Assembly: GCA_964416445.1 (NCBI GenBank)
Contig: CAYQEE010000006.1
Location: forward strand, 21,230-85,229
Origin: an uncultured Gammaproteobacteria bacterium
GTDB lineage: Bacteria; Patescibacteriota; Microgenomatia; Levybacterales; UBA12049
Reading direction: 5' to 3'
DNA: 64,000 nt
Numbering within the stretch: position 1 is the stretch's first letter; each line of letters begins with the position of its first letter. The notes beneath the pieces are model-generated. The model was not told where the DNA came from and searched no databases. It saw nothing but the letters and a program-made list of their open reading frames with translations. The position numbers and the translations under genes are program-made. This document shows positions 4,884 through 38,930 of the stretch, piece after piece.

Positions 4884-5387
4884 TAGGTCGTACAAAAGTA
4901 CGTAATAACCAAGTATATATCTCTACCTCGTTCCTACTAAACAGACCAACAAGTACTGCAAGAATGATCATTTTTCATGATCTCTTTTTTTGGTCAGCAT
5001 GGCAAACGGAAATTTTTTCTCAAGAAGGAGAGCCTATAAAATTTTCAAATTCTCCTGTATAATTGCAAACAAGTTTATACAAAAAATCCTAGTAATCATA
5101 ATTTTCTATAAATAGAAGAACAAAATGCAGATTGGCACAAGCGAAAGTTATTACTTATTTAATTGAGAATAGATACAAAATTTACATCGGTGGATAAATT
5201 ATCAGAATCATGAAAATTGAAATGTGACAATATCATAATCTAACGAAAGGATAAATATTGATAAATTTAATAATAGCCAGTATGATGTAATTGCTGTTTA
5301 CATAGACTCAAAAGACAAAATTATTTTGGTTGATGCTTTCAAAGTTAGAGCAAGAAGTTTGTCCATACGATATTGAATGAGTTATAT

Positions 5388-5474
5388 GGAGAGGTCGCAT
5401 AGTGGTCGAGTGCAGAAGTTTACTAAACTTCCAATCCGTAAGGATTCGTGGGTTCGAATCCCACCCTCTCCGCA
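5388..5474 (+). tRNA. Type II tRNA (long variable arm), Ser-like with a G73 discriminator. The nominal anticodon is ACU.
   Basis: The cloverleaf is read directly from the sequence. Acceptor stem GGAGAGG/CCTCTCC. D-arm GCAT-AGTGGTCGA-GTGC. Anticodon stem GAAGT/ACTTC with loop TTACTAA. Variable arm AATCC-GTAA-GGATT. T-arm GTGGG-TTCGAAT-CCCAC. CCA is not encoded. Confidence 0.8.
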
Positions 5475-5508
5475 AACAGTCATATAGTTTGAAACTTGGT
5501 TTCTACTT

Positions 5509-14292: not shown

Positions 14293-14293
14293 A

Positions 14294-17639: not shown

Positions 17640-19892
<2,253 letters not shown>

Positions 19893-19902
<10 letters not shown>

Positions 19903-21353
19903 AATTTCATAATTTGATCTTTATGAGTTAAGACATTTTGCAAAAAATCATTAAAGGTTTTTGCGGTAAAGCACGAATCGAAAAGTGCTTTTGTTTCAGG
20001 CGTCTCAGCAGCTTTTTGTAATTTGGTACGAATTTGTGGAATTTTTTCAATTTCTTTAATTTGATCCACCCAAATGAGACTAAAGAGAATGAGTTGTACT
20101 TGTTCTTCAACAATGGCCATAAACGGTTGTTCGAAAAAAGAAAATATTGTATCGCCTTTTTTGAGAATATTAATCACGTTATCAGTCAATTCGGTACCAA
20201 AATGGGAAAGATCTTGCATGCGTTCATACAGCGTTAAAAAAGCAGTTAACTCTCGGGTAATATCTCGATTGAGTTGTGATTGGGTTTGTCTTCCCGCACG
20301 GGTAACAGAAATATGCACATTAATTGCAGGTCGTCGACCGTTATAGAATATTTCACTATCAAATAAGATGTGTCCGTCTGTAATACCCATTAAATTGGTT
20401 TGAATATATCCCGTGATATCTCCCTCAATGGTTTCAACTACAGGAAGACAGGTAATAGAAACTTCACCTTTTGCCGGATGTTTGAAGTTCCCTGCACGTT
20501 CAAGAAGTCGAGCGTGGGTATAGAAAATATCTCCCGGATAACTATCTCGTCCCGGGAAATTATTGGAAACTAACGATAACTCTCGGTAGAATCGAGCATG
20601 GGCATACAGATCGTCAAGAATAATAAGGACATCTTTACCTTGCTCAGCGAAATACTCAGCTAATGTCATGCTCGCAAACGGAGTAACATAAATCGTACTT
20701 GCGGGATCATATGCACTGGAGGCGACGACCACGACTTTATCTCGTAATCCTTCTTCAATTAGTAACTCTTCAATTGCTTTAATATCGCTTTTTTTCTTTC
20801 CAATAATACAGTAAATAGCCACTGTTCCTTCTTTGATTTGTTTTTTAATCGTATTTAATACAAATGCGGATTTTCCTGTTTTTCGATCACCCATGACTAA
20901 CTCTTTTTGACCTTTTCCCAGCGGAATCATCATATCAACAAGTGTTGTTCCTGTTTTAAATGGTCGAGTAATTCTCGCTCGACTTTTAATACCCGGTGGT
21001 CTTGTATCAACTGGGCGAAATTTCACATCTACGGGATGTAATTTCGTGTCATCAAGGGAATTTCCTAAAGGATCAATAAGCATTCCCAATAAATGATCAC
21101 CAACAGGAATCGAGAGCGTGGTTTGTGTACGAACAACCTTTGTCCCAACAGGAATTTTTTCCTGAGAGAACAGTAAAATAGTGACACTATCCCGATTGAG
21201 TCCGATTACCCAACCTTTTTGCCCTGTTTCAAATAACACGAGTTCTCGTAATTTAACATACGGGAGTCCTTTGGCAATCAGAATAGGAGTATTGACTTGA
21301 TCAACCTCACCATATTCACCAAAGGTGGTTAAATAGTATTGATAATCTTGCAT
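19893..21353 (-). CDS. atpA: F1 ATP synthase alpha subunit.
   Basis: The Walker A motif GDRKTGKSAF is present. Confidence 0.95.
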
Positions 21354-21358
21354 CGTTT

Positions 21359-21829
21359 TTATTCTTTTTTATCTTGAATATATTTTTTTAGTGTGTAATC
21401 TCTGGCAAGTCCTCCGGAACCAATAATTGCGCCCGCGATGAGAGTTGGATCTACTTCGATTTTGAAAAGAACTGATCTTTGGTAATTTTTTCGGAACCAC
21501 TCTGCCATCATATCCAACATATTTTCTGTAGGTTGGATTGGCAGAGAGAGTTCAATGAGAGGAAGTGCTGATATTGTCTCTTTGAGAGAAGTAATAAAGT
21601 TTTGCATATCGGTACTATTCGTTTTATTGATTGCATTTGCCGACATAAGTTGTTCGAATTGTTCTTTTTTTTCGTATGACATTATTGTTTTTAAATAAGA
21701 ATCTAGATCCATTTTTTGTGAATAGATACTATTGACCAGTTCATCAAGTTGCCAAAAAAACGCATCAGCGTCTGCTTTTGTCCGAACTAATTGCGTCAAG
21801 TTTTCTTCAGCCAATTTATATGGTGTCAC
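21359..21829 (-). CDS. atpH: ATP synthase delta (OSCP) subunit.
   Basis: The 156-aa protein is in the delta position. Its C-terminus IAGAIIGSGGLARDYTLKKYI is OSCP-like. Confidence 0.7.
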   Translation of the reverse strand: MTPYKLAEENLTQLVRTKADADAFFWQLDELVNSIYSQKMDLDSYLKTIMSYEKKEQFEQLMSANAINKTNSTDMQNFITSLKETISALPLIELSLPIQPTENMLDMMAEWFRKNYQRSVLFKIEVDPTLIAGAIIGSGGLARDYTLKKYIQDKKE

Positions 21830-22499
21830 GTAATAATATATCCTCCTTTTTGGCTTTCTCTAAGGAATCGAGGAGTAATTTTTCATGGTCAGATGTTGAG
21901 ATTGCTCGGCCTAAAAATTCTAATGATACTTTGTGAACGACAGACGTGACATCATTAGCAATTTTATCCATTTGTTCTTTTTTATATGCCTGAAGTTCTT
22001 CCTGCATTTTTTTGAATGATTCATCTGCTTGTTTAACCAAGGTCTCTTGGACGCTTGAGGTTTTATTTGAAAATTCAGCGAGATATGCGTTCATATCATC
22101 TTGAGTGGTTTTGGAAATATTAGTGAACATATCCTGCGTTTGTTGTTCCACAGTCGCATGGAGCGTTTCTAAGTTTTTCTTATATTCACTAAGCAAATCT
22201 TGCACTGTTTTTGCAACAGTTGCGTCTGCATTATCAACAATTTTTTTATTCGTCTCAACAATTTCTTGTTCGAGTTGTGTTCCTTTTTCTGAAGCTTCAG
22301 CTAAAATCCGTTCAGCATCTTTATGGGCATGCAATAATACTTTTTTATAATTGTGAATTGTCCGTTTTTCTTTTTCTTCAAATTTTTCTTCAGCGTCGAA
22401 AACTTTTTTAAAAAAAAGTGCAAACCCGCCAATAGCAACCACTAAAAAACAGGTGAGTACCAACAATAATAAGCCTTCAGAAAGTATAGGCAGATTCAT
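21816..22499 (-). CDS. atpF: ATP synthase Fo b subunit.
   Basis: A single N-terminal TM helix is followed by a long charged coiled-coil stalk. Confidence 0.75.
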   Translation of the reverse strand: MNLPILSEGLLLLVLTCFLVVAIGGFALFFKKVFDAEEKFEEKEKRTIHNYKKVLLHAHKDAERILAEASEKGTQLEQEIVETNKKIVDNADATVAKTVQDLLSEYKKNLETLHATVEQQTQDMFTNISKTTQDDMNAYLAEFSNKTSSVQETLVKQADESFKKMQEELQAYKKEQMDKIANDVTSVVHKVSLEFLGRAISTSDHEKLLLDSLEKAKKEDILLRDTI

Positions 22500-22505
22500 A
22501 TACTT

Positions 22506-23393
22506 TTATAATCTTAACACAAGAAAACCCATAACAAAACCAGTTGCTAAAATAACAATGGCGATAAAGACATTCAGTGCCATACCAATATGAATTTCAG
22601 TACTTGAAAGAGGGTTTCGTCCTAACGCATCAATACCTTTATTTGCTGTCCGTGAAATTAGCACAAAAGCAAATAACAGTGCTAGTGCTACAATACCCCC
22701 AGCGAGAACATACTTAAAAACTAAACTTGGTTGTTCATAGGTTGCCAAGGTACTTAAAGCAAAGATATCAAGTAAACTGGAACGAATATTTGCATTGCCA
22801 ATGAAATAGTGAATATTAAGACTGATAGGAATTTTCCCAATTGTTTTCGGATTACTTGCTGTATAGTCACTGAGCGCAACGCCAATAGTATAACCTGGTG
22901 CGGAAGCTTTTTGTCCAATACCTGAGATAGTGGAACTCGTAATAAAATCACCTTTTTTAATTGGTCCATTGCTTGTTGTAACAAGGATTTGTCCCTGCCC
23001 TGTTGCAACCACGGGATAGAAGGGAATAGGGCCTTGAATGTCTTGGGTAATTGCAGGATTTGCAGTAATAACGCCAACCATAAATTGATCACCGGGAGTT
23101 TTACTTAATGCATAAGTACCATCAGTAAATGAGACAATTTCTCCCTCGCGAATATTCGATGTGCCAATAGGATAATAGTTTGCAGGGGAATAAAGGGTGT
23201 TCGTATCAGTTGCTGCATAGGTAAAGTTTTTTAGTATGGAAGATTGAAAGGAAAAGAGAATAAGAATGATGAGTGAAGTTTCGAAAATTACAAATAACGA
23301 TCGTTTTATTCTAGTTGGTTGTCTCATAAGTACAAGAATAATGGATAAAAATATCCCTCTCATAAGCAAAGCATATTTATCAAAAAAATGCAA
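22506..23393 (-). CDS. Atypical membrane protein occupying the atpB/atpE slot of the operon. It has two N-terminal TM helices, a Gly/Thr/Ser-rich soluble beta domain of about 170 aa, and a C-terminal two-helix hairpin resembling an Fo c-subunit.
   Basis: The C-terminal 70 aa (LAGGIVALALLFAFVLISRT-ANKGIDALGRNP-...IGMALNVFIAIVILATGF) resemble the c-subunit helix-GRNP/ARQP loop-helix pattern. The ion-binding carboxylate position appears to be Asn. The likely start is the ATG at 23363 (MRGIF...). Confidence 0.45.
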   Translation of the reverse strand: MHFFDKYALLMRGIFLSIILVLMRQPTRIKRSLFVIFETSLIILILFSFQSSILKNFTYAATDTNTLYSPANYYPIGTSNIREGEIVSFTDGTYALSKTPGDQFMVGVITANPAITQDIQGPIPFYPVVATGQGQILVTTSNGPIKKGDFITSSTISGIGQKASAPGYTIGVALSDYTASNPKTIGKIPISLNIHYFIGNANIRSSLLDIFALSTLATYEQPSLVFKYVLAGGIVALALLFAFVLISRTANKGIDALGRNPLSSTEIHIGMALNVFIAIVILATGFVMGFLVLRL

Positions 23394-28405: not shown

Positions 28406-28999
28406 ATGCCAATTGCCTTTCTCTATTGTGATCTTGCTGGAGTGCACTATGATTTTCAAACTGGTCTGACGAAGCTCTTAGAAAATGAAGGTATTACCTA
28501 TGCATCTTTTGCCAATGATATTGAACCACTTGAGAAAAAGCTTAATGAAGGATCGATTTCATTGGATCAAGCGCTTCCATCATACGAAAGATATTTTCAC
28601 CATTCATTGGCAAAGAAGGAATTTATTAATTTTCTTACTGATCAATTTCAACCAATTACCGCAATGCATACTGTGCTTCAAAATCTTTCAAAACACTATC
28701 CGATTGGATTGCTAACAAATATTTTTGATGGATTATTTAGCGTATTACAAAAAAAACATCTTATTGCATCTCTCGATTATCAACAAATTATTCAGTCATA
28801 CCAAGTAGGAGTAGTAAAACCTGATCCACGAATTTATCTTCTTGCTACTAAAAAGGCACAAGTAAATCCAGAACAAATCCTTTTTATTGATGATTCTCCA
28901 GTATCTGTTGCCGCAGCAAACCAAGTGGGTTGGAATACCATTTTGTTTGATGTAAAACGAGTTGATACGATTCGTGAAGAAATTGCCGCAAAGTTGTGA
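28406..28999 (+). CDS. HAD-superfamily hydrolase (subfamily IA-like).
   Basis: The C-terminal motif ILFIDDSPVSVAAANQVGW is present. The N-terminal nucleophile motif is atypical (YCDLAGV). Confidence 0.55.
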   Translation: MPIAFLYCDLAGVHYDFQTGLTKLLENEGITYASFANDIEPLEKKLNEGSISLDQALPSYERYFHHSLAKKEFINFLTDQFQPITAMHTVLQNLSKHYPIGLLTNIFDGLFSVLQKKHLIASLDYQQIIQSYQVGVVKPDPRIYLLATKKAQVNPEQILFIDDSPVSVAAANQVGWNTILFDVKRVDTIREEIAAKL

Positions 29000-29155
29000 T
29001 ACCCCAAAACGTATGGAATAATATGGATAATGAACGTTCATGGGTGTCTGAAATTTGTATTGTCCTTGTGATCTTAATTATTGCGGGAAGAGTTTTTTTT
29101 GGCAAATAGTTTTTCAGAAAGCATATCATTACCTCTGTTGCATGTATGCAATATC

Positions 29156-29944
29156 CTAATAATGTCCAAAAGGATAGGTAATATCTTTAGTAAAATATTC
29201 AATACCATAACGCCACAGTCCATAGATTCCTTTCAGATAAAATACCAAAAAGGGAAGAGGTCCCATTTTCCGAATTCGTCGTACAGAATGATAAGCAAGA
29301 GGCGAGAAATAAAAATGATACGAGGCACCATTTGCATAGGATCTTCTTGCATAATCAATATCTTCTGCAATCAGTAAATCAGTTCGGAAACCATTTAACT
29401 TCTCATGATTTTCTTTGGTGGTAAATAGAAAAAACCCGGGTGCATAATGTCCGAAGAGACAGAATAGAATTCCCACAGGAGCAAGAATCGCAATAATGAG
29501 CGTTGAAAAGAAATCAAATTCTGCGGCTAAACATAAGGTGACTGCGAGGGTACGTTCCTGAGGAGGAACTTTTGGAAGAAAAGATGCTAAAAAATGAGGA
29601 GGTAAAATCATATCTGCGTCAAGGAAAAGAATATGATGAAATGATGCTTTTTTTGCACCAAAGTTTCGTTGTGCTCCGATATTCTTATTGATTTCATAAA
29701 CAGAGAGATTTGGTAACGTTTGCTGGAACTGTCTAATGACCTCTCTTGTTTTGTCGGTTGATTTTCCATCGACAACAATGATCTCAAGTTTTCCGGTATG
29801 GGTTTGGTTTTGAAGTGAGTTCAGTAATTTAGGTAAATATTTTTCTTCATTAAGTGTTGGAATAACGATGGAAAGTTGAGAAATCATGAATTTTATCATA
29901 AATAAAAAATGATTAGGTGTCAAAAATACTTTTTTTATTTTCAC
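29156..29944 (-). CDS. GT2-family glycosyltransferase.
   Basis: SIVIPTLNEEKYL, VVDGKSTDKT and LFLDADMI (DxD) are present. Confidence 0.8.
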   Translation of the reverse strand: MKIKKVFLTPNHFLFMIKFMISQLSIVIPTLNEEKYLPKLLNSLQNQTHTGKLEIIVVDGKSTDKTREVIRQFQQTLPNLSVYEINKNIGAQRNFGAKKASFHHILFLDADMILPPHFLASFLPKVPPQERTLAVTLCLAAEFDFFSTLIIAILAPVGILFCLFGHYAPGFFLFTTKENHEKLNGFRTDLLIAEDIDYARRSYANGASYHFYFSPLAYHSVRRIRKMGPLPFLVFYLKGIYGLWRYGIEYFTKDITYPFGHY

Positions 29945-29981
29945 ATCTCTTTGTTTATGGTATAGTTTTACTATCCGCCCT

Positions 29982-30851
29982 ATGAAGAAAGTATTGCTTT
30001 TTCTCTTACCTGTTGTCTTAGCGATTCTTGTTTTTCTTGGAGTTGTGTATTTTTTGCAAAAAACAACCGTGAGTAAAGGTGCTTTACAAGTAACTTCCCA
30101 ACCACAAAGTACGGCGTATTTAAATGGACAAATTGTTGGAAAGACACCGTTATGTGATTGTGACCCGAAAGATATGCTTCCTGTTGGTGACTACACAATT
30201 CGACTTGTCCCCACAAGTGGGAATGCAGAACCTTATGAAGAGAAAATTACACTTTCCCAATCCGTTTTAACTGTTGTTGATCGGACGTTTGGCGATGTGG
30301 GAAAATCAAACGGAAGTGTTATCTCCTTAAGTCCGATTTCTGATCCGAAGGATGCACAAATTTTTGTTTCGTCCTTTCCCTATGGTGCAGATGTTTCATT
30401 AGATAGTAATCCTTCAGGAAGTACCCCGTTGGTAATTGATCATGTCACGGAATCTGACCATGAGTTAACTGTTTCCAAAAGCGGCTATGATCAGAAAACA
30501 ATTCGAATTCATGGCGTGTTAGGATATAAACTCAGTGCCATTATCTCACTAGCAACTGATCTTTCTCAGCAACCCGTTGCGATTACTACTGCTACACCTT
30601 CTGCGTCAGTAACTCCTACGGGGAATCCGACACCGACGAGTATCTTACAAGGTCCCCAAATTACTATTTTAGATACACCCACTGGTTTTCTTCGAGTTCG
30701 AGACTCAGCGTCCTTAGGTGGTACTGAAATTGCACAAGTTCATCCAGGAGAAACCTACCCGTACGTTGGAGAACAGGATGGGTGGATGGAAATAAAGCTA
30801 CCAAATGGTCAAAAGGGATGGGTAAGCGCAACCTATACCAAAAAGCTGTAA
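29982..30851 (+). CDS. Membrane-anchored surface protein with two PEGA domains and a C-terminal bacterial SH3 (SH3b) domain.
   Basis: An N-terminal TM helix is followed by PEGA-like repeats (YLNGQIVGKTPL...DYTIRL; FPYGADVSLDSNPSGSTPLVID) and a C-terminal SH3b pattern (LRVRDSASLGGTEIAQVHPGETY...GWMEIKLPNGQKGWVSATY). Confidence 0.65.
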   Translation: MKKVLLFLLPVVLAILVFLGVVYFLQKTTVSKGALQVTSQPQSTAYLNGQIVGKTPLCDCDPKDMLPVGDYTIRLVPTSGNAEPYEEKITLSQSVLTVVDRTFGDVGKSNGSVISLSPISDPKDAQIFVSSFPYGADVSLDSNPSGSTPLVIDHVTESDHELTVSKSGYDQKTIRIHGVLGYKLSAIISLATDLSQQPVAITTATPSASVTPTGNPTPTSILQGPQITILDTPTGFLRVRDSASLGGTEIAQVHPGETYPYVGEQDGWMEIKLPNGQKGWVSATYTKKL

Positions 30852-31796
30852 TTATCCTCGGATGAAGTAAATGACTATAATAACAAGAAGAATCCATGAA
30901 ATAACACTGATTAATAATGGCGTATCAGATAAGAATACTTTCTCCGGACTCTCTCCTTCATGTTTTTCATAAATATCTTGTAAATAACGCATTAATCCGT
31001 ATACTACGGGGAAAATAGTTATCATTAACCATTTTCTTTGGAAATAGTCGGGAAGAAAATTGGGAAGCAAAGCGTTAATAGAAATTTTTATTCCTTGAGG
31101 GTCTTCAAAAAACGTAAAAAATGAATAGAAAATCAGTGTACACGAGACAAAGATTGAAGCATAAACATCCAAGAGCCGTTCAGAATAATGAGATAATGTT
31201 TTTCTGGTAGCTTCAATTTGTTTTTCGGTAAATCGGGAGATGAGGGTTAACTCGGAACGTCGTTTTCCAACAGCTAAAAACAGCGATAAAGAAACCGTTG
31301 TGAGTACAAGCCAAATGGAAATATGGTATCCGCTTGCAACTTCGCCACCATATACTCGTAAAATATATCCCGCAGCAAGTGCAAGAATATCAAGAATTGT
31401 AATATCTTTAATAAACATGGAATAGGAAAGTTGGAGTGCGAGGTAAATAGTGACAAGAAAGAAAAATGCTGGATTAATAGCAATACTCAAAATGAGTGAT
31501 CCAATGGCAAGAATAAAAAAGAGTACTAATGCATATGGTATCGAAAGATCTCCTGCAGCTAACGGTCGAAACTTTTTAAAAGGATGCATTCGGTCTTTTT
31601 GAATGTCGAAAATATCATTGATAACATAGACAGCACTGGAAAGGCCACAAAAAATAATAAAAGCAAAACAGACATTTAAGAAAATTGGGAGATTAAAGAG
31701 TTGACCAGTAAAAACAAGAGAGGGAAAAACAGCAAAGTTTTTAATCCATTGCTTTGGTCTGAACAACTTTAGCGTTTTAATAATTTTCTTTTTCAT
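30852..31796 (-). CDS. UbiA-family prenyltransferase, decaprenyl-phosphate phosphoribosyltransferase (DPPR synthase)-like.
   Basis: The NDIFDIQKDRMHP motif (NDxxDxxxD) is present with 8-9 TM helices. Confidence 0.7.
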   Translation of the reverse strand: MKKKIIKTLKLFRPKQWIKNFAVFPSLVFTGQLFNLPIFLNVCFAFIIFCGLSSAVYVINDIFDIQKDRMHPFKKFRPLAAGDLSIPYALVLFFILAIGSLILSIAINPAFFFLVTIYLALQLSYSMFIKDITILDILALAAGYILRVYGGEVASGYHISIWLVLTTVSLSLFLAVGKRRSELTLISRFTEKQIEATRKTLSHYSERLLDVYASIFVSCTLIFYSFFTFFEDPQGIKISINALLPNFLPDYFQRKWLMITIFPVVYGLMRYLQDIYEKHEGESPEKVFLSDTPLLISVISWILLVIIVIYFIRG

Positions 31797-32856
31797 GGTT
31801 TGCTTTTAGCGTAATATGCAAGAAAAGCAATCCGCCACCTAACACTACTCCCAACATGACAATCGCGAATATTTTGCCTGAACTCGAGAGTGTTAAGGAA
31901 GCTGCTCCTAATATAGCAGAAATTATCCAATAAAACAAAGCTACTCCGCGTTGTCCCAACCCTTTTTGCAGTAATAAGTGGTGCAAATGTTTATTATCTC
32001 CCCAAAAAGGTGATCTGCCACTGAGTAAGCGACGAATTATCGTAAAAATACCATCAATCATAGGAACTCCCATAACTAAAATAGCTGTAGCTAATTTTGC
32101 TCCCGATAAAATCGAAACAGCACTCAAAAGAAGATAAATAGCAGTCGCTCCATATCCGGGAAAAATCCGGGCAGGATAGTAATTATAGACAAGAAACCCC
32201 AGAGCAGCTCCAGCAATAATAAATGATAATTTTACTGGTAACGCTGTAACGGGATCACTCAGAAAAAAGCGAAGACTTAACAATCCAATAACAAATGCTG
32301 ATATTGCTACCACTCCTGGCATTTGTCCATCGACTCCTTTACTCCAATTCAACATATTCATTACCCAGACAATCCAAATGAGAGATAAGATGTCAGAAAG
32401 ATGTAATCCCACTCGTACTTGAAAAAGTGTTGTGGAAAATCCAATAGCGTTTAAATGAAGGATACCGCCTAATGGATTCGTGATAAAAGGTATCGTGACT
32501 CCGCTATTAACAATAATTAAAGCACAAAAGATATTAACCGCAAATCGAAAATAGCGGGATATATCGTACTTATCATCGAGAGTTCCGGTTACTAAGGCAA
32601 TGAGCGATGAAACAAAAAGAGCAACGGTTATTCGATTAATAGGGAGAAAAAAGATGCTTGCTCCAACAACTCCGAGGAATAAAGGAATGCCACCTCCACG
32701 AGGAATTGGTTTGGTATGTACCATTGCCGGATGTTTGTGTGTTTTTGGATCATCAATAAGTCCCCATTTTCGAATGAAAATAAGACAAAAAGGAGTAACG
32801 AGGAGCGTTATGAAAAAAGAAGAAAAGAGCGGTAAGAAAATTATCATTGTTTCCAT
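31777..32856 (-). CDS. MraY/WecA-family (GT4) polyprenyl-phosphate N-acetylhexosamine-1-phosphate transferase.
   Basis: The protein has 10-11 TM helices, a cytoplasmic-loop motif TLDDKYDIS and MNMLNWSKGVDG. Confidence 0.7.
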   Translation of the reverse strand: METMIIFLPLFSSFFITLLVTPFCLIFIRKWGLIDDPKTHKHPAMVHTKPIPRGGGIPLFLGVVGASIFFLPINRITVALFVSSLIALVTGTLDDKYDISRYFRFAVNIFCALIIVNSGVTIPFITNPLGGILHLNAIGFSTTLFQVRVGLHLSDILSLIWIVWVMNMLNWSKGVDGQMPGVVAISAFVIGLLSLRFFLSDPVTALPVKLSFIIAGAALGFLVYNYYPARIFPGYGATAIYLLLSAVSILSGAKLATAILVMGVPMIDGIFTIIRRLLSGRSPFWGDNKHLHHLLLQKGLGQRGVALFYWIISAILGAASLTLSSSGKIFAIVMLGVVLGGGLLFLHITLKANHEKENY

Positions 32857-32862
32857 TAATCG

Positions 32863-33216
32863 TTACCTCATTAACAGTATTATTTGAATCACATAGATAA
32901 AAACGAATAGCCAAAACATTACGGTTGTAATTCCAAGAAATCGGGCAAGTAATGCTATTCTTTTATATACTTTTGATGCAACAACAAGGTTGATAATAAA
33001 GAAGATCATGGCAGTTCCCAGATAGATAAATATATCTATTTTTTGCCCGATCCGTTCATATCCCCAAGGCATTTTATTATACAAGGGAAGAAAAGGGGGG
33101 AGTGCATTATAGGAAAACCCAATAAAAAGAAAACTTGCAATTAACAGGAGAAAGCTGATAAGAAAACCCCAATAGGTAATTTTGTCTTGTCGTAAATGTT
33201 TAAAGAATTTTTTCAT
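32863..33216 (-). CDS. Small membrane protein (3-4 TM), hypothetical.
   Basis: The 117-aa protein overlaps the neighbouring genes inside the operon. Confidence 0.4.
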   Translation of the reverse strand: MKKFFKHLRQDKITYWGFLISFLLLIASFLFIGFSYNALPPFLPLYNKMPWGYERIGQKIDIFIYLGTAMIFFIINLVVASKVYKRIALLARFLGITTVMFWLFVFIYVIQIILLMR

Positions 33217-34687
33217 AAATTGTTGTCCGATCTATAGTAAGTCTAGGTGTATATTGATTGAGCGAATAAGGTAAGGCTGGTTCATTAGGAAAAATTATTA
33301 TATACTTTGGTTTGATTTGTGCAAGTATCATTGCAGTTTCTTTCATATTACTTGCACTACTGTCCATATGATAAGCGACAATAAATCGTCCTAGTGGAAG
33401 GGTATTGGTTATCATATAGATCTGAGGGATATCCCCCCAAATGAAAACTCTATCGTTTGGTTTTTTTGTATTGTTAATATATTGGGCAAGTGTTGCATTA
33501 CGAATAGTAACTTTGTCGAAAAATGTATCATATTGTGCTGTTGATTTTTGTTGCATGGTATAGCCAATGAAGTTTCCATAGTATCCAAACAAATACTTAG
33601 GTATTCGTGTATGCAGTCCAAATGGTATATCAATAAGGATAAGTAAACTCAGCATACCTAGGGTAAAAGGGCGTGAAGTTCTTTTCTGAGAAAACCAAAG
33701 TCCAAAACCTAATGATAAACTGGAGAGAATCATGAGAACGTAATGTGTATATGGCCGTTGCGAAAAGAAAATATCAAACAGAGAAAAAACAATCCAAAGA
33801 AAAATGAATAGCTGTGTATGGGTAAACTTTTTACGGAAATAGAAAAGCAAGAGAGTCAAAAGGCAAAGAATACCAAGTTTTACCATAAGAAGGCCACGAG
33901 GAATAACGAAGGTATTTCCATAGGCGACATAATTAACATTACTAAAAAATGCTGAAATAAAGAATGCATGGAGATTCCCTTGAAAGAAAAAAATAATACT
34001 GGTAAGCAGAAAGGGGACAAAAAAACCAGCAACAAAGATACCCAGTATTTTCATTTGTTTTTGTATTTCTGAAAGTTTTGTATAAGAAATAAAAAAGAGA
34101 TAAATAAAAAATGCCGTAAAATCAAAAAAAGCAACAATTTTTGTAAGAAATGCAATGCCAAGGGCAATACCTGCAATGAGTAATAAAATAAGGTGTGCAA
34201 AAGATGGTTTAGTTACTGGTTTCTGTTGAGCTACCATGTAGACAACGATTGCTGCCAAAAGAATAGGTAGGAGCATGAAATTTTCAGCATTTGCTATATT
34301 TCCCTCCAGAAAGGGTGTTGCAAAGAGAAACGCAAATATTCCTGTTGTAATAAATTGTATCTTTTCCTGCAAAAATAATTTTTTCGAAAGAAAATAAAAT
34401 GCGATGACTGTGCAAAGTCCTACGCATAAAGAGAAAATTCTGACGCTTGTTTGATCGCCATTAAAAAATGCATAGAGTACATATAAAAGTGGTGGTTTAT
34501 TATCCCAAATGCCTGTATATAGGATTCTTCCTTGTTTGAGTGCTGTCCCAATCACTTGATAGATTCCCTCATCCCCATACCAATAAGGTTCAAAAATAGA
34601 GGGCAATCGAAGAAGAAAAAAAAGAAATACCGTGAGGAGAAGAAACCATGTAGATTTTTGCTTCTCAAGTTTATGAAGAAGTTTCAT
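33200..34687 (-). CDS. GT-C-fold glycosyltransferase (ArnT/PMT-like, GT39/GT83-type).
   Basis: The 495-aa protein has about 12 TM helices and a first-loop acidic motif YWYGDEGIY. Confidence 0.65.
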   Translation of the reverse strand: MKLLHKLEKQKSTWFLLLTVFLFFLLRLPSIFEPYWYGDEGIYQVIGTALKQGRILYTGIWDNKPPLLYVLYAFFNGDQTSVRIFSLCVGLCTVIAFYFLSKKLFLQEKIQFITTGIFAFLFATPFLEGNIANAENFMLLPILLAAIVVYMVAQQKPVTKPSFAHLILLLIAGIALGIAFLTKIVAFFDFTAFFIYLFFISYTKLSEIQKQMKILGIFVAGFFVPFLLTSIIFFFQGNLHAFFISAFFSNVNYVAYGNTFVIPRGLLMVKLGILCLLTLLLFYFRKKFTHTQLFIFLWIVFSLFDIFFSQRPYTHYVLMILSSLSLGFGLWFSQKRTSRPFTLGMLSLLILIDIPFGLHTRIPKYLFGYYGNFIGYTMQQKSTAQYDTFFDKVTIRNATLAQYINNTKKPNDRVFIWGDIPQIYMITNTLPLGRFIVAYHMDSSASNMKETAMILAQIKPKYIIIFPNEPALPYSLNQYTPRLTIDRTTIYEKIL

Positions 34688-36177
34688 AATTTTTCAGTTA
34701 CTTTATATTCAATTCGTTTCCCAAACATTAGTTGTGTATGAGAAATAAGGGCTGGAAGAGCGCCAAGGAAAAAACCAACAATAGGAAGTAACACTAATTC
34801 AAGCGGAAAAAGGAATTGCTTTGATTTAGAGACGACATGTCGATCTTTTCTATTTCGAAAATCAATAACAATCATGGTTAACGTTGCAAATATACATGAT
34901 GTTAAGATAAATCCTGCAAGTCGAGGAAGGTTATAACCTAAATCAGTATTCACAAACACAGGATTAACAAGAGGAATGACGTTGGCAGCGATAGTAATAA
35001 TAAACCAGTTTACCGGCCACAAAAAATGATCAAGTAAGACATGATATAACATGAGGGTTTTTCGAAAGAATGGTATTCCAGGAACTGTTAACCACCACTG
35101 AATAAAAAGTGGGTCGTCTGATACACCCCACGACCATCGTCGTTCTTGGTCATATTTATTTTTGAGACTTTTCCAATAATTTGAAGACAAAGGTGCATCC
35201 ATTGAGGTTTGCAGAAAAATTGGATCTACCCATGTATTTCCTCGCAATTTATAAAATGCCTTAAAAAAGATACGGTAATCTTCTGGAATAACATCGGTAT
35301 CCCAATATCCAATATCAACGAGCATTTTATATGATAATGAATACGTGGAATTTGAGACTAAACGGTCTCCTTGAATAAGCAGTGCTGTTCGCCATAAGCT
35401 ACTGAAAAAAGCAAGTACCCGAATAGGTGCCGGAACTTCCCAGAAATTATTATAGTTTACATTTGCTGATTGCCAAAATTTATGATTTCTTTTTGGATCA
35501 TGCAAGAAACTATTGGAAAGATAGGAAAAATATTGCGTATCAAAAATGGAATCTGCATCAACTGAAGAAATTGTTGCATAGTCAAGATCAATTTTTTTTG
35601 TTTTGACTAATCGTTCATATGCTTCTTTGGCGGCAAATGATTCATTGGAAGATTTTCCTTTTACCTCTCCGGCAATGTCAGGATGAAAGGTCGCAAAAAT
35701 ATCACCGAAAAATGGCTTAAATTCATGAATCAATTTGTCTGCTTTTTCAGGTCCTTCCGTTTCTCGTAATTCCATGGCCAGAACAATATATAAACGTTTT
35801 GTGGGAAAAGTTTGTTTGGTTATTGCGGCAAGCGTATGTCGTAACTTTTCATAGCGTTCACAATAATTGGGAATGACAATAATATGCGTAACGTTTTCAA
35901 ATTGAGCATGAGATTTTGCTTTTTCTAACCAATTTTGTGCTTCGGCATCCCGTATTTTATTTGAAGCAATCCACGCCATAATTGCTAATGAAAATGAACG
36001 ATAAAGCCAATAAACATCAAAAAGTAAAATGAAGTAAGCTAAAATATTTGGGAGAAATATCGATCCCCATAACGGGAATAAAATAAGCGTCCATGAAATT
36101 AAACCAGGGATAAGTTCAAGGGTTCGTCTTGTTTTAATAGGATAGCGTATGAAAAGTTTATTGAAAAATGAATTCAT
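34684..36177 (-). CDS. Membrane-embedded processive GT2 glycosyltransferase (cellulose/chitin/hyaluronan synthase-like).
   Basis: Motifs SSVDADS, TDVIPEDY and QERRWSWG (QxxRW) are present. There are N- and C-terminal TM helices. Confidence 0.7.
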   Translation of the reverse strand: MNSFFNKLFIRYPIKTRRTLELIPGLISWTLILFPLWGSIFLPNILAYFILLFDVYWLYRSFSLAIMAWIASNKIRDAEAQNWLEKAKSHAQFENVTHIIVIPNYCERYEKLRHTLAAITKQTFPTKRLYIVLAMELRETEGPEKADKLIHEFKPFFGDIFATFHPDIAGEVKGKSSNESFAAKEAYERLVKTKKIDLDYATISSVDADSIFDTQYFSYLSNSFLHDPKRNHKFWQSANVNYNNFWEVPAPIRVLAFFSSLWRTALLIQGDRLVSNSTYSLSYKMLVDIGYWDTDVIPEDYRIFFKAFYKLRGNTWVDPIFLQTSMDAPLSSNYWKSLKNKYDQERRWSWGVSDDPLFIQWWLTVPGIPFFRKTLMLYHVLLDHFLWPVNWFIITIAANVIPLVNPVFVNTDLGYNLPRLAGFILTSCIFATLTMIVIDFRNRKDRHVVSKSKQFLFPLELVLLPIVGFFLGALPALISHTQLMFGKRIEYKVTEKL

Positions 36178-36974
36178 AGGTGAAATAAAGTTTTTGCATT
36201 GAGAACTGTTTGCTGTTGAATCTTTTCAAATGAAACTCCCTTGATTTTTGCAAGAAACTTACCTACAAGTATAACATGGGAAGGAAGATTTCTGCTACCT
36301 CGGAATGGTACCGGAGTGAGAAAGGGTGAATCTGTTTCCGTTACTATTCGATCAAGTGGAGTTGCTTTTGCAAGATCAGTAAGTGTCGTAGTCTCTCCTG
36401 GGGCTAATCCCTTATACGTAATATTCCCATCAAAACCAATAAAAAATCCTAAATCTAATGCTCCCTTAAGAGTATCCATATCTCCTGCGAAACAATGAAA
36501 CATACCAGGTTTTGTTGCGAGAAGGTTTTTATGATGTCGTAAAATAGCGAGGATATCCTTTCCCGCGTGTCGATTATGAATTTGCAGGGGAAGGCCAACA
36601 GTATGAGCTAATACAATTTGTTTTTCAAAAACTTCTTTTTGGAGTGTTGGATCAACAATGCCATTTGATTTATAATGATAGTAATCCATACCGATTTCAC
36701 CAATTGCAACAACTTTTGGTTTTTTTGCAAGGGCTTCCAGTTGTTTTTCCCAATCAGATGATAAATCATGTTTATCTGCATGATGTGGATGAATACCGAC
36801 AATAGCATACAAATAGGGATAATGTTCAGCAAGTGCAACCGCTTTTTCACTTGAATCTATTTTTGTTCCAACATTGATGATGGTATGTACTCCTGTTGTG
36901 TGTGCTTGATGAATAATTTCGTCAACATCTTTTTCATAGGCGTGAAAGTTGAGGTGACAATGAACATCGATCAT
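36174..36974 (-). CDS. tatD: TatD-family metal-dependent hydrolase (DNase).
   Basis: The N-terminal MIDVHCHLNF and conserved His/Asp/Glu positions are present. Confidence 0.85.
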   Translation of the reverse strand: MIDVHCHLNFHAYEKDVDEIIHQAHTTGVHTIINVGTKIDSSEKAVALAEHYPYLYAIVGIHPHHADKHDLSSDWEKQLEALAKKPKVVAIGEIGMDYYHYKSNGIVDPTLQKEVFEKQIVLAHTVGLPLQIHNRHAGKDILAILRHHKNLLATKPGMFHCFAGDMDTLKGALDLGFFIGFDGNITYKGLAPGETTTLTDLAKATPLDRIVTETDSPFLTPVPFRGSRNLPSHVILVGKFLAKIKGVSFEKIQQQTVLNAKTLFHL

Positions 36975-37105
36975 CTCTCTATTATAGCAACAAAACGTTT
37001 CTCCTTGGGCTTATTGATATATTACCAGCAAAAGTTGTAAATGAATGACCTTCGTTACCAGGAAAAGAAAAAAGTGGAGAACCTTTTGAACAGTAGAGAC
37101 GAAGG

Positions 37106-38557
37106 TTAGGTAATGCGAGGAAAAAGAGGTTTTTGTGCTTTTATTTCTGGTCCTTGAAATTGTTTTTCAATTTTTTCTGCAGTTTCTGGAAGGAACGGTT
37201 CAAGAAGACCGGCAATCTCAAGTAGTTGGTCAACACAGTGTGCAAGAATAGGTTTTAATTTACTGTCTTGTCTTTTTAATAAGTCCCATGGTTTTTCTTG
37301 ATCAATAAATTGATTGAGTTTTGTAATTTTATCCCAAATGAACCCTAAGGCAATGTGGAATTGATAGGTTGATAAGCTTTCTGTATATTGTGCAACATCA
37401 AGTATATGTCCAGAAACACGATTCTCGGATCCCATCGTTTCATACTGTGATGATTCACACAATTTTGCAACTCGAGCAACAAGATTTCCCAGACCATTTG
37501 CAAGGTCAGCATTATAAACTTCTTTTAATTTCTTTTCAGAAAAATCCCCATCTGCAGTTGATAAAATTTTCCGCAAAAGAAAATAGCGAAGGGTATCAAC
37601 ACCATACTGTTCAATCAGAACAAGCGGATCAATAACATTCCCTAATGTTTTTGACATCTTCTGTCCATCAACCGTTAAGTATCCATGAACGAAAAGTGAT
37701 TTCGGAACTGCAAGTCCAGCTGATTTGAGAATGGCAGGCCAATAAATAGCATGAAAACGAATAATTCCTTTCCCAATGACCATAACATCTTGGGGCCACC
37801 ACTGCTGGTAATGTTTTTCATTCCAGCCAAATCCAATTCCCGTTTGATAAATGTTTAACGCATCAAACCAGACATACATGATTTGGTCAGGATCATTGGG
37901 AACAGGAATTCCCCATCCACGAGCGCGTTCTTTACTGCGAGAAATAGAAAAATCTTCAAGACCTTTGCGAACGAATGCCAGTGCTTCATTTTTGCGAATT
38001 TCAGGAGTTATTTGAAGCTTATCATTTTGTATTAAATCTTCTAAAAACGATTGATATTTTGATAATCTAAAAAAATAATTTTCTTCAGAAACAGTATCTA
38101 ACTTTCTTCCAGGGTGTTCAAAACATTCTCCGTTTTCATTTAATTCTTCGGGTTCATAAAACTGTTCACAGCCGACGCAATACAATCCTGTATACGATTT
38201 TTTATAAATATCGTTGTTTTTTGCACATAATTCCCATAACTTTTGTGATGAAGGGAAATGATGTTTAACATCGGATCCCCTTTGCCAAACATCAAACTTA
38301 ACATGCAACTTCTTTGCAACTGCTAAAAATTCTTCATTATGTTCATTCGTAAATTCTTGAGGGGCTTTCCCTGCTTTTTCAGCTGCTTGAAAGATTTTTA
38401 ATGCATTTTCGTCTGCACCACATAAGTAGAAAACGTCATCTCCAATAATTTTGTGATATCGGCGAATAACATCTGCATAAATAAATTCTTGCGCATGACC
38501 AATATGTGGTTTTGCGTTAACATACGGAATTGCGCTCGTGATATAAAATTTTGCCAT
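37106..38557 (-). CDS. metG: Methionyl-tRNA synthetase (short form without the C-terminal domain).
   Basis: HIGH (PHIGHA) and KMSKS (KMSKTLGN) motifs are present, plus a zinc knuckle CVGCEQF. Confidence 0.9.
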   Translation of the reverse strand: MAKFYITSAIPYVNAKPHIGHAQEFIYADVIRRYHKIIGDDVFYLCGADENALKIFQAAEKAGKAPQEFTNEHNEEFLAVAKKLHVKFDVWQRGSDVKHHFPSSQKLWELCAKNNDIYKKSYTGLYCVGCEQFYEPEELNENGECFEHPGRKLDTVSEENYFFRLSKYQSFLEDLIQNDKLQITPEIRKNEALAFVRKGLEDFSISRSKERARGWGIPVPNDPDQIMYVWFDALNIYQTGIGFGWNEKHYQQWWPQDVMVIGKGIIRFHAIYWPAILKSAGLAVPKSLFVHGYLTVDGQKMSKTLGNVIDPLVLIEQYGVDTLRYFLLRKILSTADGDFSEKKLKEVYNADLANGLGNLVARVAKLCESSQYETMGSENRVSGHILDVAQYTESLSTYQFHIALGFIWDKITKLNQFIDQEKPWDLLKRQDSKLKPILAHCVDQLLEIAGLLEPFLPETAEKIEKQFQGPEIKAQKPLFPRIT

Positions 38558-38594
38558 GGCCTCATTTTATCAGAAGGGGTAAGCTGAAACAAGG

Positions 38595-38930
38595 TTATTG
38601 TGTTTTGAGAAAAATAATTTCAAGTAAAACAAATAAAATTGTTAGCAGTAAGAGAAAAAACCAATTCGTAATTTGAAAATATCGAAAAAGTAAAAAGCAA
38701 ATAAAGAATATACTTACCAGTGTTCCCTGTAGTTTGCTTTTGATTAAATATCCCACCAAACCAAAGATAAGAAAAAAAAGTAAGATAAAAAACAAAACAA
38801 TAAGTGAAATGCTTACTCCTCCCAAGCCGATAGTATATTGAGGGGGGAAAGCATACGTCATATAGAGTAATAAAAGAAGTGAGAGTATACTAATTAACAA
38901 CAAGGTAATTTGCTTTTTGAAATATACCAT
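38595..38930 (-). CDS. Small membrane protein, hypothetical.
   Basis: The 111-aa protein has 3 TM helices. Confidence 0.35.
   Translation of the reverse strand: MVYFKKQITLLLISILSLLLLLYMTYAFPPQYTIGLGGVSISLIVLFFILLFFLIFGLVGYLIKSKLQGTLVSIFFICFLLFRYFQITNWFFLLLLTILFVLLEIIFLKTQ

Follow-up and report, generated by a model that had tools for sequence, protein, structure and literature searches.

Six genes run head-to-tail along the minus strand of the 64-kb window (the whole stretch of 64,000 nucleotides that was analysed), in the order tatD, a 497-aa family-2 glycosyltransferase (GT2L), a 495-aa GT-C glycosyltransferase, a 117-aa protein with three transmembrane (TM) segments (sTM), a WecA-like sugar-1-phosphate transferase (GT4) and a UbiA-family protein (Table 1). 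This block is convergent with a gene encoding a PEGA-PEGA-SH3b protein. All eight open reading frames of the locus were found where the original prediction had placed them, and its gene identifications hold: Pfam and NCBIfam recover TatD, PMT/PMT_2, Glycos_transf_4, UbiA, PEGA (twice) with SH3_3, and Glycos_transf_2, the 497-aa GT2 itself being without a Pfam match. The motifs it had named (QERRW, YWYGDEGIY and NDIFDIQKD) are all present in the translations.

Table 1. Genes and candidate promoter element at the locus (positions within the window).
Feature	Position	Strand	Basis
Independent GT2, 262 aa	29156..29944	-	PF00535 E=3e-25
PEGA-PEGA-SH3b membrane-anchored surface protein	29982..30851	+	PF08308 twice, PF08239 once
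Predicted polyprenyl-phosphate 5-phosphoribosyltransferase (DPPR synthase / PPPRS; UbiA superfamily), 314 aa	30852..31796	-	NF008978, PDB 8j8j, residue conservation
Polyprenyl-phosphate sugar-1-phosphate transferase, MraY/WecA superfamily (GT4), 359 aa	31777..32856	-	PF00953
Small 3-TM protein sTM, 117 aa, undescribed family	32863..33216	-	Hydropathy, alignment
GT-C fold glycosyltransferase (PMT/ArnT-like, GT39/GT83-type), 495 aa	33200..34687	-	Pfam PMT/PMT_2
Membrane-integrated family-2 glycosyltransferase GT2L, 497 aa	34684..36177	-	AF2 model, Foldseek, motifs
tatD (YchF/TatD-family metal-dependent hydrolase), first gene of block	36174..36974	-	PF01026 E=2e-77
Candidate extended -10-like element TGCTATAAT	36981..36989	-	7 nt upstream of tatD ATG; read from sequence

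From tatD to the UbiA gene the junctions measure -4, -4, -17, +6 and -20 nt. Overlaps of 4 to 20 nt, as originally described, are thus found at four of the five junctions (4 nt for tatD/GT2L and GT2L/GT-C, 17 nt for GT-C/sTM, 20 nt for GT4/UbiA), the exception being a 6-nt gap between sTM and GT4. The long start codons that create these overlaps are supported by homologues whose N-termini are conserved from Met1; one public gene call trims sTM to 69 aa, and an alignment of 25 homologues, conserved from Met1, favours the 117-aa form. Among related species genomes the overlap is kept at 79/79 GT4/UbiA and 72/73 GT-C/sTM junctions, with an ATGA overlap of tatD and GT2L in 32/69 and an overlap of GT2L and GT-C in 28/68; such recurrence across 80 genomes indicates that the tight packing is not due to chance. 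Shine-Dalgarno-like sequences were not seen ahead of the operon-internal genes, which fits translational coupling. The overlaps from which co-translation had been argued are conserved, and from them we infer that the six packed genes are probably co-translated. The element TGCTATAAT is a possible operon promoter that would leave almost no leader; a two-hexamer promoter scan, which performed no better than on shuffled sequences, did not pick it up.

The UbiA-family protein gave the clearest functional signal. It scores 213.1 bits against NF008978 (cut-off 207), thereby passing one NCBIfam equivalog cut-off, and 213, 210 and 164 bits against the NCBIfam DPPR models, compared with 45 bits or less for every model of an aromatic or haem prenyltransferase. 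PDB entry 8j8j (Rv3806c) matches residues 8–308 with E=8.6e-37, while the UbiA structure 4od4 is matched with E=0.007. Fifteen of 15 functional residues checked, from a list compiled from the literature on Rv3806c (PMC10994848, PMC11127046), are conserved, 14 of them without variation across 27 homologues; they comprise the PRPP-, ribose-, 5'-phosphate- and lipid-phosphate-binding residues and the remainder of the NDxxDxxxD motif. Among them are the phosphoribose-binding residues of Rv3806c that are not common to ordinary UbiA enzymes (PMC10994848). The sequence evidence is strong for its assignment as a polyprenyl-phosphate phosphoribosyltransferase: by both HMM and PDB scores it groups with the DPPR synthases, and not with the menaquinone or haem-O enzymes that would have spoken against the original prediction. 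The same bit scores and E-values contradict a reading as a prenyltransferase of quinone or haem synthesis. Homologues are already listed by NCBI as decaprenyl-phosphate phosphoribosyltransferase.

GT4 matches PF00953 with 77.5 bits (cut-off 27), and its translation contains DDxxD, NxxNxxxGxDG and HLHH motifs, which we take to be those of WecA. It scores 92.3 bits against the WecA model TIGR02380 and 35.6 bits against bacterial MraY, both below the equivalog cut-offs, so that the family-level assignment is WecA/TagO-like rather than MraY-like. Its best PDB sequence match carries an MraY annotation. The sTM gene always lies directly upstream of GT4. Hydropathy gives its product three TM segments, and the protein carries an invariant loop motif, LPPxxPxxNxxPWGxxR; no Pfam family was matched by the window protein, nor consistently across 25 homologues. 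sTM could act as an accessory subunit or as a flippase.

In GT2L a GT-A domain, with the motifs D207xD209, E299-D300 and Q344xxR347W348, lies between two TM helices at the N-terminus and further TM helices at the C-terminus. The window protein falls below all Pfam thresholds and matches PgaC weakly; PF13632 is matched by 34 of its 46 distant relatives. The best Foldseek matches of its AF2 model (pLDDT 79.7) are Chlorella virus hyaluronan synthase (HAS; TM 0.57–0.59 over about 485 columns), BcsA, XlHAS1 and chitin synthase, suggesting, at the level of fold, a protein of the hyaluronan/cellulose synthase type. Across 35 homologues the motif residues do not vary; among the 46 distant relatives D207, D209, D300, Q344 and R347 remain invariant, E299 nearly so, and W348 is kept in fewer than 90%. 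The family is small, with 303 clusters at E<=1e-30 among 1.84 billion representatives. The first outside loop of the GT-C protein holds an invariant D39-E40 pair, and its C-terminal domain is small and of alpha/beta type. It is not a GT136 enzyme and resembles the Emb/Aft enzymes distantly at most. Its best Foldseek E-values include the STT3/AglB oligosaccharyltransferases, which use diphosphate-linked donors; the protein itself is PMT/ArnT-like, and does not fall into oligosaccharyltransferase families unrelated to polyprenyl-phospho-sugar use, one of the two outcomes that had been named as refuting the original prediction.

The same gene order occurs in 80 Levybacteria GTDB species genomes, with unrelated outer flanks, and in more distant metagenome contigs where GT2L is 40–49% identical. 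tatD (264.8 bits against TIGR00010, cut-off 206) is directly upstream of GT2L in 69/70 Levybacteria loci and is also present in distant loci; sTM occurs in 78 of the 80 Levybacteria loci and accompanies GT4 at each distant locus where the latter is present. Of the two flanking genes included in the original prediction, one is a conserved neighbour and the other lies outside the conserved module. The PEGA-SH3b gene abuts the synthase gene and is found in 79/80 Levybacteria loci, convergent with a gap of 0 or a 4-nt overlap, as well as in distant loci; its product carries a TM segment at the N-terminus, a pair of PEGA domains, a linker rich in Ser, Thr, Pro and Ala, and an SH3b domain at the C-terminus. 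This conserved partner is possibly an acceptor or a wall-binding scaffold. The 262-aa GT2 is found in none of the 80 related loci, with weak matches in six distant loci at other positions. The synthase gene directly follows GT4 in 24 of 30 cluster-bearing distant loci; one clade (five distinct loci) and one further locus keep GT2L, GT-C, sTM, GT4 and PEGA and lack the synthase. Conversely, two Levybacteria loci (L047 and L090) lack the orthologous GT-C and retain the synthase. Pairing of donor enzyme and transferase is therefore not obligatory, and GT-C, kept by a clade without the UbiA gene, need not depend on the UbiA enzyme. The synthase is best seen as an accessory decoration module, and to judge from its distribution looks like one grafted onto a core of GT2L, GT-C, sTM and GT4.

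We regard the locus as a conserved cell-envelope glycan operon of Levybacteria-type Patescibacteria, which are ultrasmall members of the candidate phyla radiation; the host presumably has a single membrane. Most likely, judged by its gene content, the operon builds and decorates a cell-surface sugar polymer. GT4 would prime polyprenyl phosphate with HexNAc-1-phosphate, and GT2L would extend this primer (a conjectural link), or make a polymer alone, and move it through the membrane. At the cytoplasmic face the UbiA-family enzyme would load polyprenyl phosphate with 5-phosphoribose taken from PRPP. Once further proteins had dephosphorylated and flipped the product, the lipid-linked ribofuranose would serve GT-C outside the membrane, which would add the pentofuranose either to the polymer or to a surface protein, the adjacent PEGA-SH3b being one candidate. 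We give this sequence of primer, polymer, donor and decoration slightly better than an even chance. A lipid-linked pentose donor for extracytoplasmic glycosylation, as originally proposed, remains the best reading. The 64-kb window, including the operon itself, and the genes that recur within 10 kb of the operon in 80 relatives showed neither DprE1/DprE2 epimerases nor a phosphoribose phosphatase (PRP-type HAD or PAP2) nor a recognisable flippase (MATE, GtrA/SMR-type); an HAD protein near the operon is of generic type and not a conserved neighbour. Without an epimerase nearby, ribofuranose becomes the default sugar and a more economical guess than arabinofuranose. The proposed analogy with decaprenyl-phospho-arabinose (DPA) synthesis thus stands for the synthase and weakens where epimerases, phosphatase and an Emb/Aft-like GT-C would be expected.

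The observation that GT-C persists beside GT2L, sTM and GT4 in loci without a synthase gene, while L047 and L090 keep the synthase without the orthologous GT-C, also suits a division of donors. GT-C would then transfer or ligate the diphosphate-linked GT4/GT2L glycan to protein or wall, in the manner of an oligosaccharyltransferase or a polymerase/ligase, and lipid-ribose would feed another GT-C encoded elsewhere, for example by the two GT-C-like genes at 12478–17080. STT3 and AglB among the best Foldseek E-values of the operon's GT-C, the presence of further GT-C-like genes in the window and the Ser/Thr/Pro-rich linker of the neighbouring PEGA-SH3b agree with this arrangement, which we consider a serious, if clearly less probable, alternative. 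A genuine arabinofuranose pathway, of the kind known from mycobacteria and from Pseudomonas pilin glycosylation, would require DprE1/DprE2-type epimerases elsewhere in the genome to make lipid-arabinose for a GT-C acting as arabinofuranosyltransferase. The synthase is, by sequence, apparently a close functional homologue of Rv3806c, the mycobacterial epimerase genes lie apart from Rv3806c, to go by the gene numbers in PMC11127046, and our inspection covered 64 kb of this genome and 10 kb either side in relatives; we nevertheless think such a pathway unlikely. Chance adjacency of housekeeping genes, with GT4 as peptidoglycan MraY, UbiA as a quinone/haem prenyltransferase and no shared glycan pathway, might be argued from the presence of two housekeeping genes, tatD and metG, in the same block and from the MraY annotation of the top PDB match of GT4. 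However, it is contradicted by the preference of GT4 for WecA over bacterial MraY (92 against 36 bits), by the DPPR synthase scores of the UbiA protein (213 against 45 bits at most) and its 15/15 Rv3806c residues, and by an order and overlaps kept, between variable outer flanks, in 80 species and in far more distant contigs, and we judge it highly improbable.

GT2L shares with class I hyaluronan synthase, BcsA cellulose synthase, chitin synthase and PgaC a full-length fold (TM 0.57–0.59, Chlorella virus HAS) and the DxD, ED and QxxRW motifs, at an identity of only about 12%. The mycobacterial DPA pathway (Rv3806c, Rv3807c, DprE1/DprE2, Rv3789, Emb/Aft GT-Cs; arabinogalactan priming by WecA) likewise contains a homologue of the UbiA protein, with all substrate-binding residues conserved, combines within one functional set a primer enzyme of the WecA type with a GT2 acting on the backbone, and uses a lipid-linked pentose outside the membrane through GT-C enzymes. 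In the D-arabinofuranosylation of Pseudomonas aeruginosa group IV pilin (TfpW GT-C, PPPRS and DprE1/E2 homologues), a PPPRS and a GT-C likewise glycosylate Ser/Thr of a surface protein (PMC11127046; bioRxiv 10.1101/2020.04.19.049825). The Levybacteria locus has neither epimerases nor an adjacent pilin, the pilin-like gene of the window lying 17 kb away; PEGA-SH3b, with its Ser/Thr/Pro-rich linker, could be the counterpart acceptor, and GT4 and the synthase-like GT2L have no counterpart there. Systems of the GtrA/GtrB/GtrC type, and the Gram-positive CsbB/GtcA/YfhO and GacI/J/K/L, make a lipid-monophosphate sugar inside the cell, flip it and use it outside through a GT-C, beside which a small membrane protein is encoded (described in part in PMC11127046). 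The Levybacteria operon would follow the same donor logic and has a small membrane protein gene beside GT-C, but its donor synthase is a UbiA-type PRPP user and not a GtrB-type GT2, and its sTM has three TM segments and no GtrA signature.

Of the systems compared, the three-component one for pentofuranose transfer reported by Kelly et al. 2024 (PMC11127046) comes closest; in it PPPRS and GT-C form an experimentally supported glycosylation system and an epimerase decides the sugar. Such pathways had been called uncharacterised in small-genome lineages; the pathway type is now described in other bacteria (Kelly et al. 2024, PMC11127046), and the literature searched holds no description for the candidate phyla radiation. 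In Citrobacter youngae O1/O2 (ORF15-ORF14-ORF12; Kelly et al., PNAS 2024, PMC11127046), a PRPP-using UbiA-superfamily phosphoribosyltransferase is likewise encoded with a GT-C and a WecA-primed glycan pathway, presence or absence of epimerases decides between ribose, xylose and arabinose, and decoration with the pentofuranose is optional, in keeping with the operon-bearing clade that has no synthase gene. In contrast to C. youngae, the Levybacteria synthase has no fused HAD phosphoribose-phosphatase domain, the operon encodes no MATE flippase, and GT-C is of PMT/ArnT type rather than GT136, without a beta-rich carbohydrate-binding module. Furthermore, the Levybacteria backbone enzyme is a hyaluronan/cellulose-synthase-like GT2 in place of ABC-transporter-dependent glycosyltransferases, and a novel 3-TM protein and PEGA-SH3b are fixed partners in a host belonging to the candidate phyla radiation.

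All of the open reading frames originally listed for window positions 29156-36974 are present in the sequence, as are the quoted motifs QERRW, YWYGDEGIY and NDIFDIQKD, and Pfam and NCBIfam models identify the products as TatD, a PMT/PMT_2 membrane glycosyltransferase (GT-C), Glycos_transf_4, UbiA, a protein with two PEGA domains and SH3_3, and Glycos_transf_2. The minus-strand genes had been described as overlapping throughout; four of the five junctions do overlap (by 4, 4, 17 and 20 nt), while the fifth, between a small three-helix membrane protein (sTM) and the GT4-family transferase (GT4), is a gap of 6 nt. The PEGA-PEGA-SH3b gene and the UbiA gene are convergent and abut. Start codons behind the overlaps are backed by homologue alignments that are conserved from the first methionine; in one public annotation sTM is only 69 aa long. 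No Shine-Dalgarno-like sequence stands ahead of the internal operon genes. An extended -10-like element, TGCTATAAT, can be read 7 nt 5' of the tatD ATG, and a scan of 28900-38800 for consensus promoters and terminators was uninformative, with counts no higher than in shuffled sequence.

Genes of the packed block and its flank, in window positions
Gene or product	Position	Strand	Remarks
tatD	36174-36974	-	first gene of packed block
GT2L, 497 aa	34684-36177	-	synthase-like GT2
GT-C, 495 aa	33200-34687	-	PMT/PMT_2 match
sTM, 117 aa	32863-33216	-	three-helix membrane protein
GT4-family transferase, 359 aa	31777-32856	-	Glycos_transf_4
UbiA-family protein, 314 aa	30852-31796	-	phosphoribosyltransferase models, Rv3806c structure
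PEGA-PEGA-SH3b protein	29982-30851	+	PEGA x2 + SH3_3
separate GT2, 262 aa	29156-29944	-	Glycos_transf_2

The UbiA protein is predicted from its sequence to be a polyprenyl-phosphate 5-phosphoribosyltransferase of the UbiA superfamily. It passes the decaprenyl-phosphate phosphoribosyltransferase equivalog model NF008978 (213.1 bits against a cut-off of 207), scores 210.4 bits with the sister model NF008977, which is below the cut-off of 234, and 164 bits with another, and reaches at most 45 bits with every NCBIfam model for aromatic, haem or chlorophyll prenyltransferases. Among PDB entries, the mycobacterial enzyme Rv3806c (8j8j) aligns with residues 8-308 at E=8.6e-37, against E=0.007 for the 4-hydroxybenzoate prenyltransferase 4od4. 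The structure paper on Rv3806c assigns residues to the binding of Mg/PRPP, ribose, 5'-phosphate, pyrophosphate and lipid phosphate (PMC10994848), and from that list we took R22, K28, Y70, N73, D77, K87, R90, Q135, Y138, K143, Y157, K191 and K208, whose counterparts here are R13, K19, Y57, N60, D64, K74, R77, Q122, Y125, K130, Y144, K178 and K199. With D61 and D68 added from the NDxxDxxxD residues mutated in Citrobacter youngae ORF15 (PMC11127046), all 15 functional residues are kept, comprising the NDxxDxxxD motif, the pyrophosphate K/R cluster and the ribose and 5'-phosphate contacts, and 14 of the 15 are invariant among 27 homologues. Since the phosphoribose-binding residues of Rv3806c are not common to ordinary UbiA enzymes (PMC10994848), their retention specifically favours the use of PRPP. 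Homologues in Patescibacteria and Levybacteria are already annotated at NCBI as decaprenyl-phosphate phosphoribosyltransferase.

Sequence searches of the PDB with GT2L, the 497-aa GT2, and with GT-C alone gave nothing meaningful, and fold searches were therefore used for both. The window GT2L has no Pfam match and scores 22.6 bits with the PgaC model TIGR03937, for which the cut-off is 422; among 46 relatives, 34 match PF13632 and three match Chitin_synth_2, and the family profile finds weak PDB matches (E=0.006-0.07). Its AlphaFold (AF2) model (pLDDT 79.7) superposes over its full length on Chlorella virus hyaluronan synthase (TM 0.55-0.59 across 475-500 columns), followed by BcsA, Xenopus HAS1 and chitin synthase, and places N- and C-terminal transmembrane helices around the GT-A domain in keeping with HAS/BcsA-type architecture. 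The 35 close homologues all share D207xD209, E299-D300 and Q344xxR347W348, and D207, D209, D300, Q344 and R347 are invariant in the 46 relatives at 27-55% identity. Motifs and modelled fold together point to a membrane-integrated, processive synthase-type GT2, belonging to a small family, of which 303 clusters reach E<=1e-30 in a set of 1.84 billion representatives.

GT4 matches PF00953 (77.5 bits, cut-off 27) and is predicted to be a WecA/TagO-like primer enzyme, nearer to WecA than to MraY; its 92.3 bits with the WecA model TIGR02380, compared with 35.6 for bacterial MraY, fall far short of the equivalog cut-off of 326, so that WecA-level identity, and with it UDP-GlcNAc specificity, does not follow. 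GT-C is of the PMT/ArnT type (GT39/GT83): it has a PMT/PMT_2 domain above threshold, its first extracytoplasmic loop carries an acidic motif, and its fold is that of GT-C enzymes. It is not of the Emb/Aft arabinofuranosyltransferase type. The sTM protein has three hydrophobic stretches and a loop in which LPPxxPxxNxxPWGxxR is invariant, and none of 25 members searched has a family match at E<=1; a role as a GtrA- or SMR-type flippase was rejected on this ground and because such a protein would have four transmembrane segments rather than three.

The operon is highly conserved in relatives, whose homologues carry source names such as Patescibacteria group bacterium, Candidatus Levybacteria and Levyibacteriota. 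A search of one genome per GTDB species with the alignment of UbiA proteins returned 259 relatives, of which the best 80 loci (59-79% identity) were compared. Across these 80 the order tatD, GT2L, GT-C, sTM, GT4, UbiA, convergent PEGA-SH3b holds almost without exception, the departures being truncated contigs and two loci (L047 and L090) from which the orthologous GT-C is absent; GT2L identity is 59-76%. The GT4/UbiA overlap is kept in 79 of 79 cases and that of GT-C with sTM in 72 of 73, and at tatD/GT2L and GT2L/GT-C roughly every second junction is an ATGA overlap. The outer flanks vary and consist of housekeeping genes (metG, GroEL/ES, LepA, MurJ, HrcA/GrpE, PilN/O). The window's own flankers, namely the 262-aa GT2, a HAD hydrolase and a thioredoxin-reductase-like gene, are not conserved neighbours; the 262-aa GT2, put forward as a flanking member of the module, occurs in none of the 80 loci.

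Linkage of metG and tatD is common in other bacteria. Across loci L011-L090 tatD is bound more tightly to the glycan genes than to metG: in 69 of 70 loci it immediately precedes GT2L, and the two genes often share an ATGA overlap, whereas the distance to metG ranges from 0 to 3.5 kb. TatD was considered as a pathway enzyme; its synteny is strong, but no functional argument for such a role was found.

A metagenome scan begun from GT2L relatives about 34% identical to the window protein extended the comparison. Many of the contigs retrieved, with GT2L 40-49% identical to that of the window, have the order metG, tatD, GT2L, GT-C, sTM, GT4, (UbiA), convergent PEGA. Thirty-nine loci had enough flank to be classified: GT4 is followed by the UbiA gene in 24; in six the UbiA gene is missing and the convergent PEGA gene comes straight after GT4; and nine lack GT4, seven of them being the most distant GT2L relatives in unrelated context. 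Wherever GT4 is present in a distant locus, sTM directly precedes it. The slot between GT2L and sTM is filled in distant loci either by a window-type GT-C or by a second subfamily, which is shorter (about 430-448 aa), has QSxWRDE as an invariant motif in a loop (consensus QSLWRDEAFS) and is found at L094, L104-L107, L113, L115, L123, L129, L142, L143, L145 and L146. L047 has a different PMT_2-type GT-C, also of this subfamily, just upstream of tatD (5017-6309). The second subfamily is probably GT-C, judging from the PMT_2 match of the L047 member and from a profile-profile comparison with the window-type subfamily, which gave a weak local match and nothing more. In the synthase-less loci (L117, L129, L143, L145, L146 and L147, and also L113) the convergent PEGA-SH3b gene follows GT4 within 29-139 nt; they comprise one sub-clade of the second subfamily together with L117, which has a window-type GT-C. 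The conserved core is GT2L, GT-C, sTM and GT4 with tatD and PEGA-SH3b, and because some loci keep this core without a UbiA gene, the phosphoribosyltransferase is a frequent but dispensable addition to it. The most distant GT2L relatives, at L091, L093, L097, L101, L102, L140 and L141 (32-39% identical to the window protein), lie in contigs with no other operon genes; hence the GT2L family also exists outside the operon.

Several components expected of a lipid-linked pentose pathway were sought. A Pfam scan covered window ORFs of at least 110 aa, except a few that overlap operon genes on another frame or strand, and among these found no DprE1-type FAD oxidase, partner reductase, PAP2 phosphatase, MATE or GtrA protein. 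The UbiA protein aligns with Rv3806c from end to end and has no additional (phosphatase) domain. One candidate for the missing phosphoribose phosphatase, the HAD gene at 28406-28999, was set aside, since its product is a generic HAD-IA protein that the HAD-UbiA fusion model NF006088 does not hit and since relatives do not keep it as a neighbour. This plus-strand gene starts MPIAFLYCDLAGV, which shows no clear N-terminal DxD nucleophile motif of the usual kind; the start may be set wrongly, or else the enzyme is atypical. As for a dedicated flippase, the operon has no MATE or GtrA gene and contains the conserved sTM, which matches no family. A MurJ gene lies about 7 kb from the operon in 37 of the 80 relatives and is probably the lipid II flippase.

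Homology or fold establishes the four enzyme classes, and their co-location is conserved. In the pathway that we propose as the most likely, GT4 would prime a polyprenyl carrier and GT2L would make the backbone; the synthase would make polyprenyl-P-5-phosphoribose from PRPP, other proteins would dephosphorylate and flip the lipid-linked phosphoribose, and GT-C would add ribofuranose outside the membrane, to a polymer or a surface protein. A linker rich in Ser, Thr, Pro and Ala makes up part of the PEGA-SH3b protein, for which a role as acceptor or wall tether is possible but speculative. In Levybacteria and related Patescibacteria the product might be a wall- or lipid-anchored glycopolymer made by a minimal version of mycobacterial arabinogalactan logic: priming by a WecA-type enzyme, a backbone from a synthase-type GT2, and GT-C drawing on a lipid-phospho-pentofuranose donor. 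In this scheme unrecognised proteins would replace the usual phosphatase and flippase, sTM would be either a new kind of flippase for lipid-linked sugars or an obligate primer-enzyme subunit, and PEGA-SH3b would take either of its suggested roles. Taken as a whole, this fuller scheme is doubtful.

The main rival to ribofuranose transfer by the operon GT-C is that this enzyme handles the product of GT4 and GT2L while the lipid-linked ribose feeds another GT-C. The retention of GT-C in synthase-less loci speaks for such a division, as do its strong structural matches to oligosaccharyltransferases; we judge the division somewhat unlikely. Two large GT-C-like membrane proteins are encoded on the minus strand at 12478-14292 and 14294-17080, beside F-type ATP synthase genes (17640-23393), one matching PTPS_related (PF10131) and the other TMEM260-like (PF11028) with TPR repeats; the former region's product has no BLAST similarity to the operon GT-C. 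These two proteins are candidates for using a lipid-linked sugar donor in place of the operon GT-C. It is unlikely that this is a true arabinose pathway whose epimerase genes lie far from the operon. The original prediction drew an analogy with decaprenyl-phospho-arabinose (DPA), and this is unsupported, as DprE1 and DprE2 were found neither among window ORFs of at least 110 aa nor among recurrent neighbours in the 80 loci, where the sole FAD_binding_4 protein is MurB. The prediction otherwise largely stands, except that the 262-aa flanking gene does not belong and that the concept has already been published.

Other genes in the window were also noted. At 60236-63197 (-) three genes overlap one another: one YceG-like, one of the nucleoside-phosphorylase family (Glycos_transf_3) and one for a sortase, whose presence implies that this organism has surface proteins anchored to the wall. 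The GT1 protein at 3085-4281 (+) passes the NCBIfam MGT 'macrolide family glycosyltransferase' cut-off (339.6 against 260 bits), and a member of this subfamily is unexpected in a very small genome. ARAGORN places a tRNA-Ser with anticodon ACT at 5388-5473 (+); bacterial serine tRNAs do not usually have adenosine as the wobble base.

CPR bacteria live attached to other cells, and to our knowledge almost nothing is known of their surface chemistry. The operon is among the most conserved blocks around these genes, and the persistence of its order even where GT2L is only 40-49% identical indicates a core envelope polymer. Literature searches combining DPPR synthase (the phosphoribosyltransferase) or DprE1 with Patescibacteria, CPR or Levybacteria returned nothing relevant in the literature searched. 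The cases of a PRPP-based pentofuranose donor listed in PMC11127046 are actinobacterial, Gram-negative and Gram-positive, with one phage-encoded candidate. If lipid-linked ribofuranose really is made, this donor pathway would extend to a lineage with very small genomes, and the operon would supply a compact, testable gene set and an uncharacterised family of small membrane proteins. Practical value is modest, since automatic annotation already names the enzymes correctly and the pathway type was published as a concept in 2024 (PMC11127046); the interest, which is moderate, lies chiefly in the conservation and in the sTM family of an understudied lineage.

Among published systems the three-component pentofuranose pathway of C. 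youngae comes closest; older relatives are the mycobacterial DPA pathway and the arabinosylation of Pseudomonas pilin. In C. youngae, Und-P-ribofuranose is formed from PRPP by a UbiA-like synthase to which a HAD phosphatase is fused, the proposed flippase is a MATE protein, and a GT-C of family GT136 adds ribofuranose to a WecA-primed O antigen, while added epimerases switch the pentofuranose to xylose or arabinose (PMC11127046). GT136 was founded since ORF12 resembled no existing family (PMC11127046), whereas the operon GT-C matches PMT/PMT_2, so that its membership of GT136 appears unlikely. The two systems share a synthase, a GT-C and a WecA-type primer; in the present case synthase and GT-C stand in one operon, an arrangement kept in 73 of the 80 loci. 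The Levybacterial operon differs in being without a fused or adjacent phosphatase, a recognisable flippase or an epimerase, in the PMT/ArnT type of its GT-C and the synthase type of its GT2, and in having two fixed partners, sTM and PEGA-SH3b.
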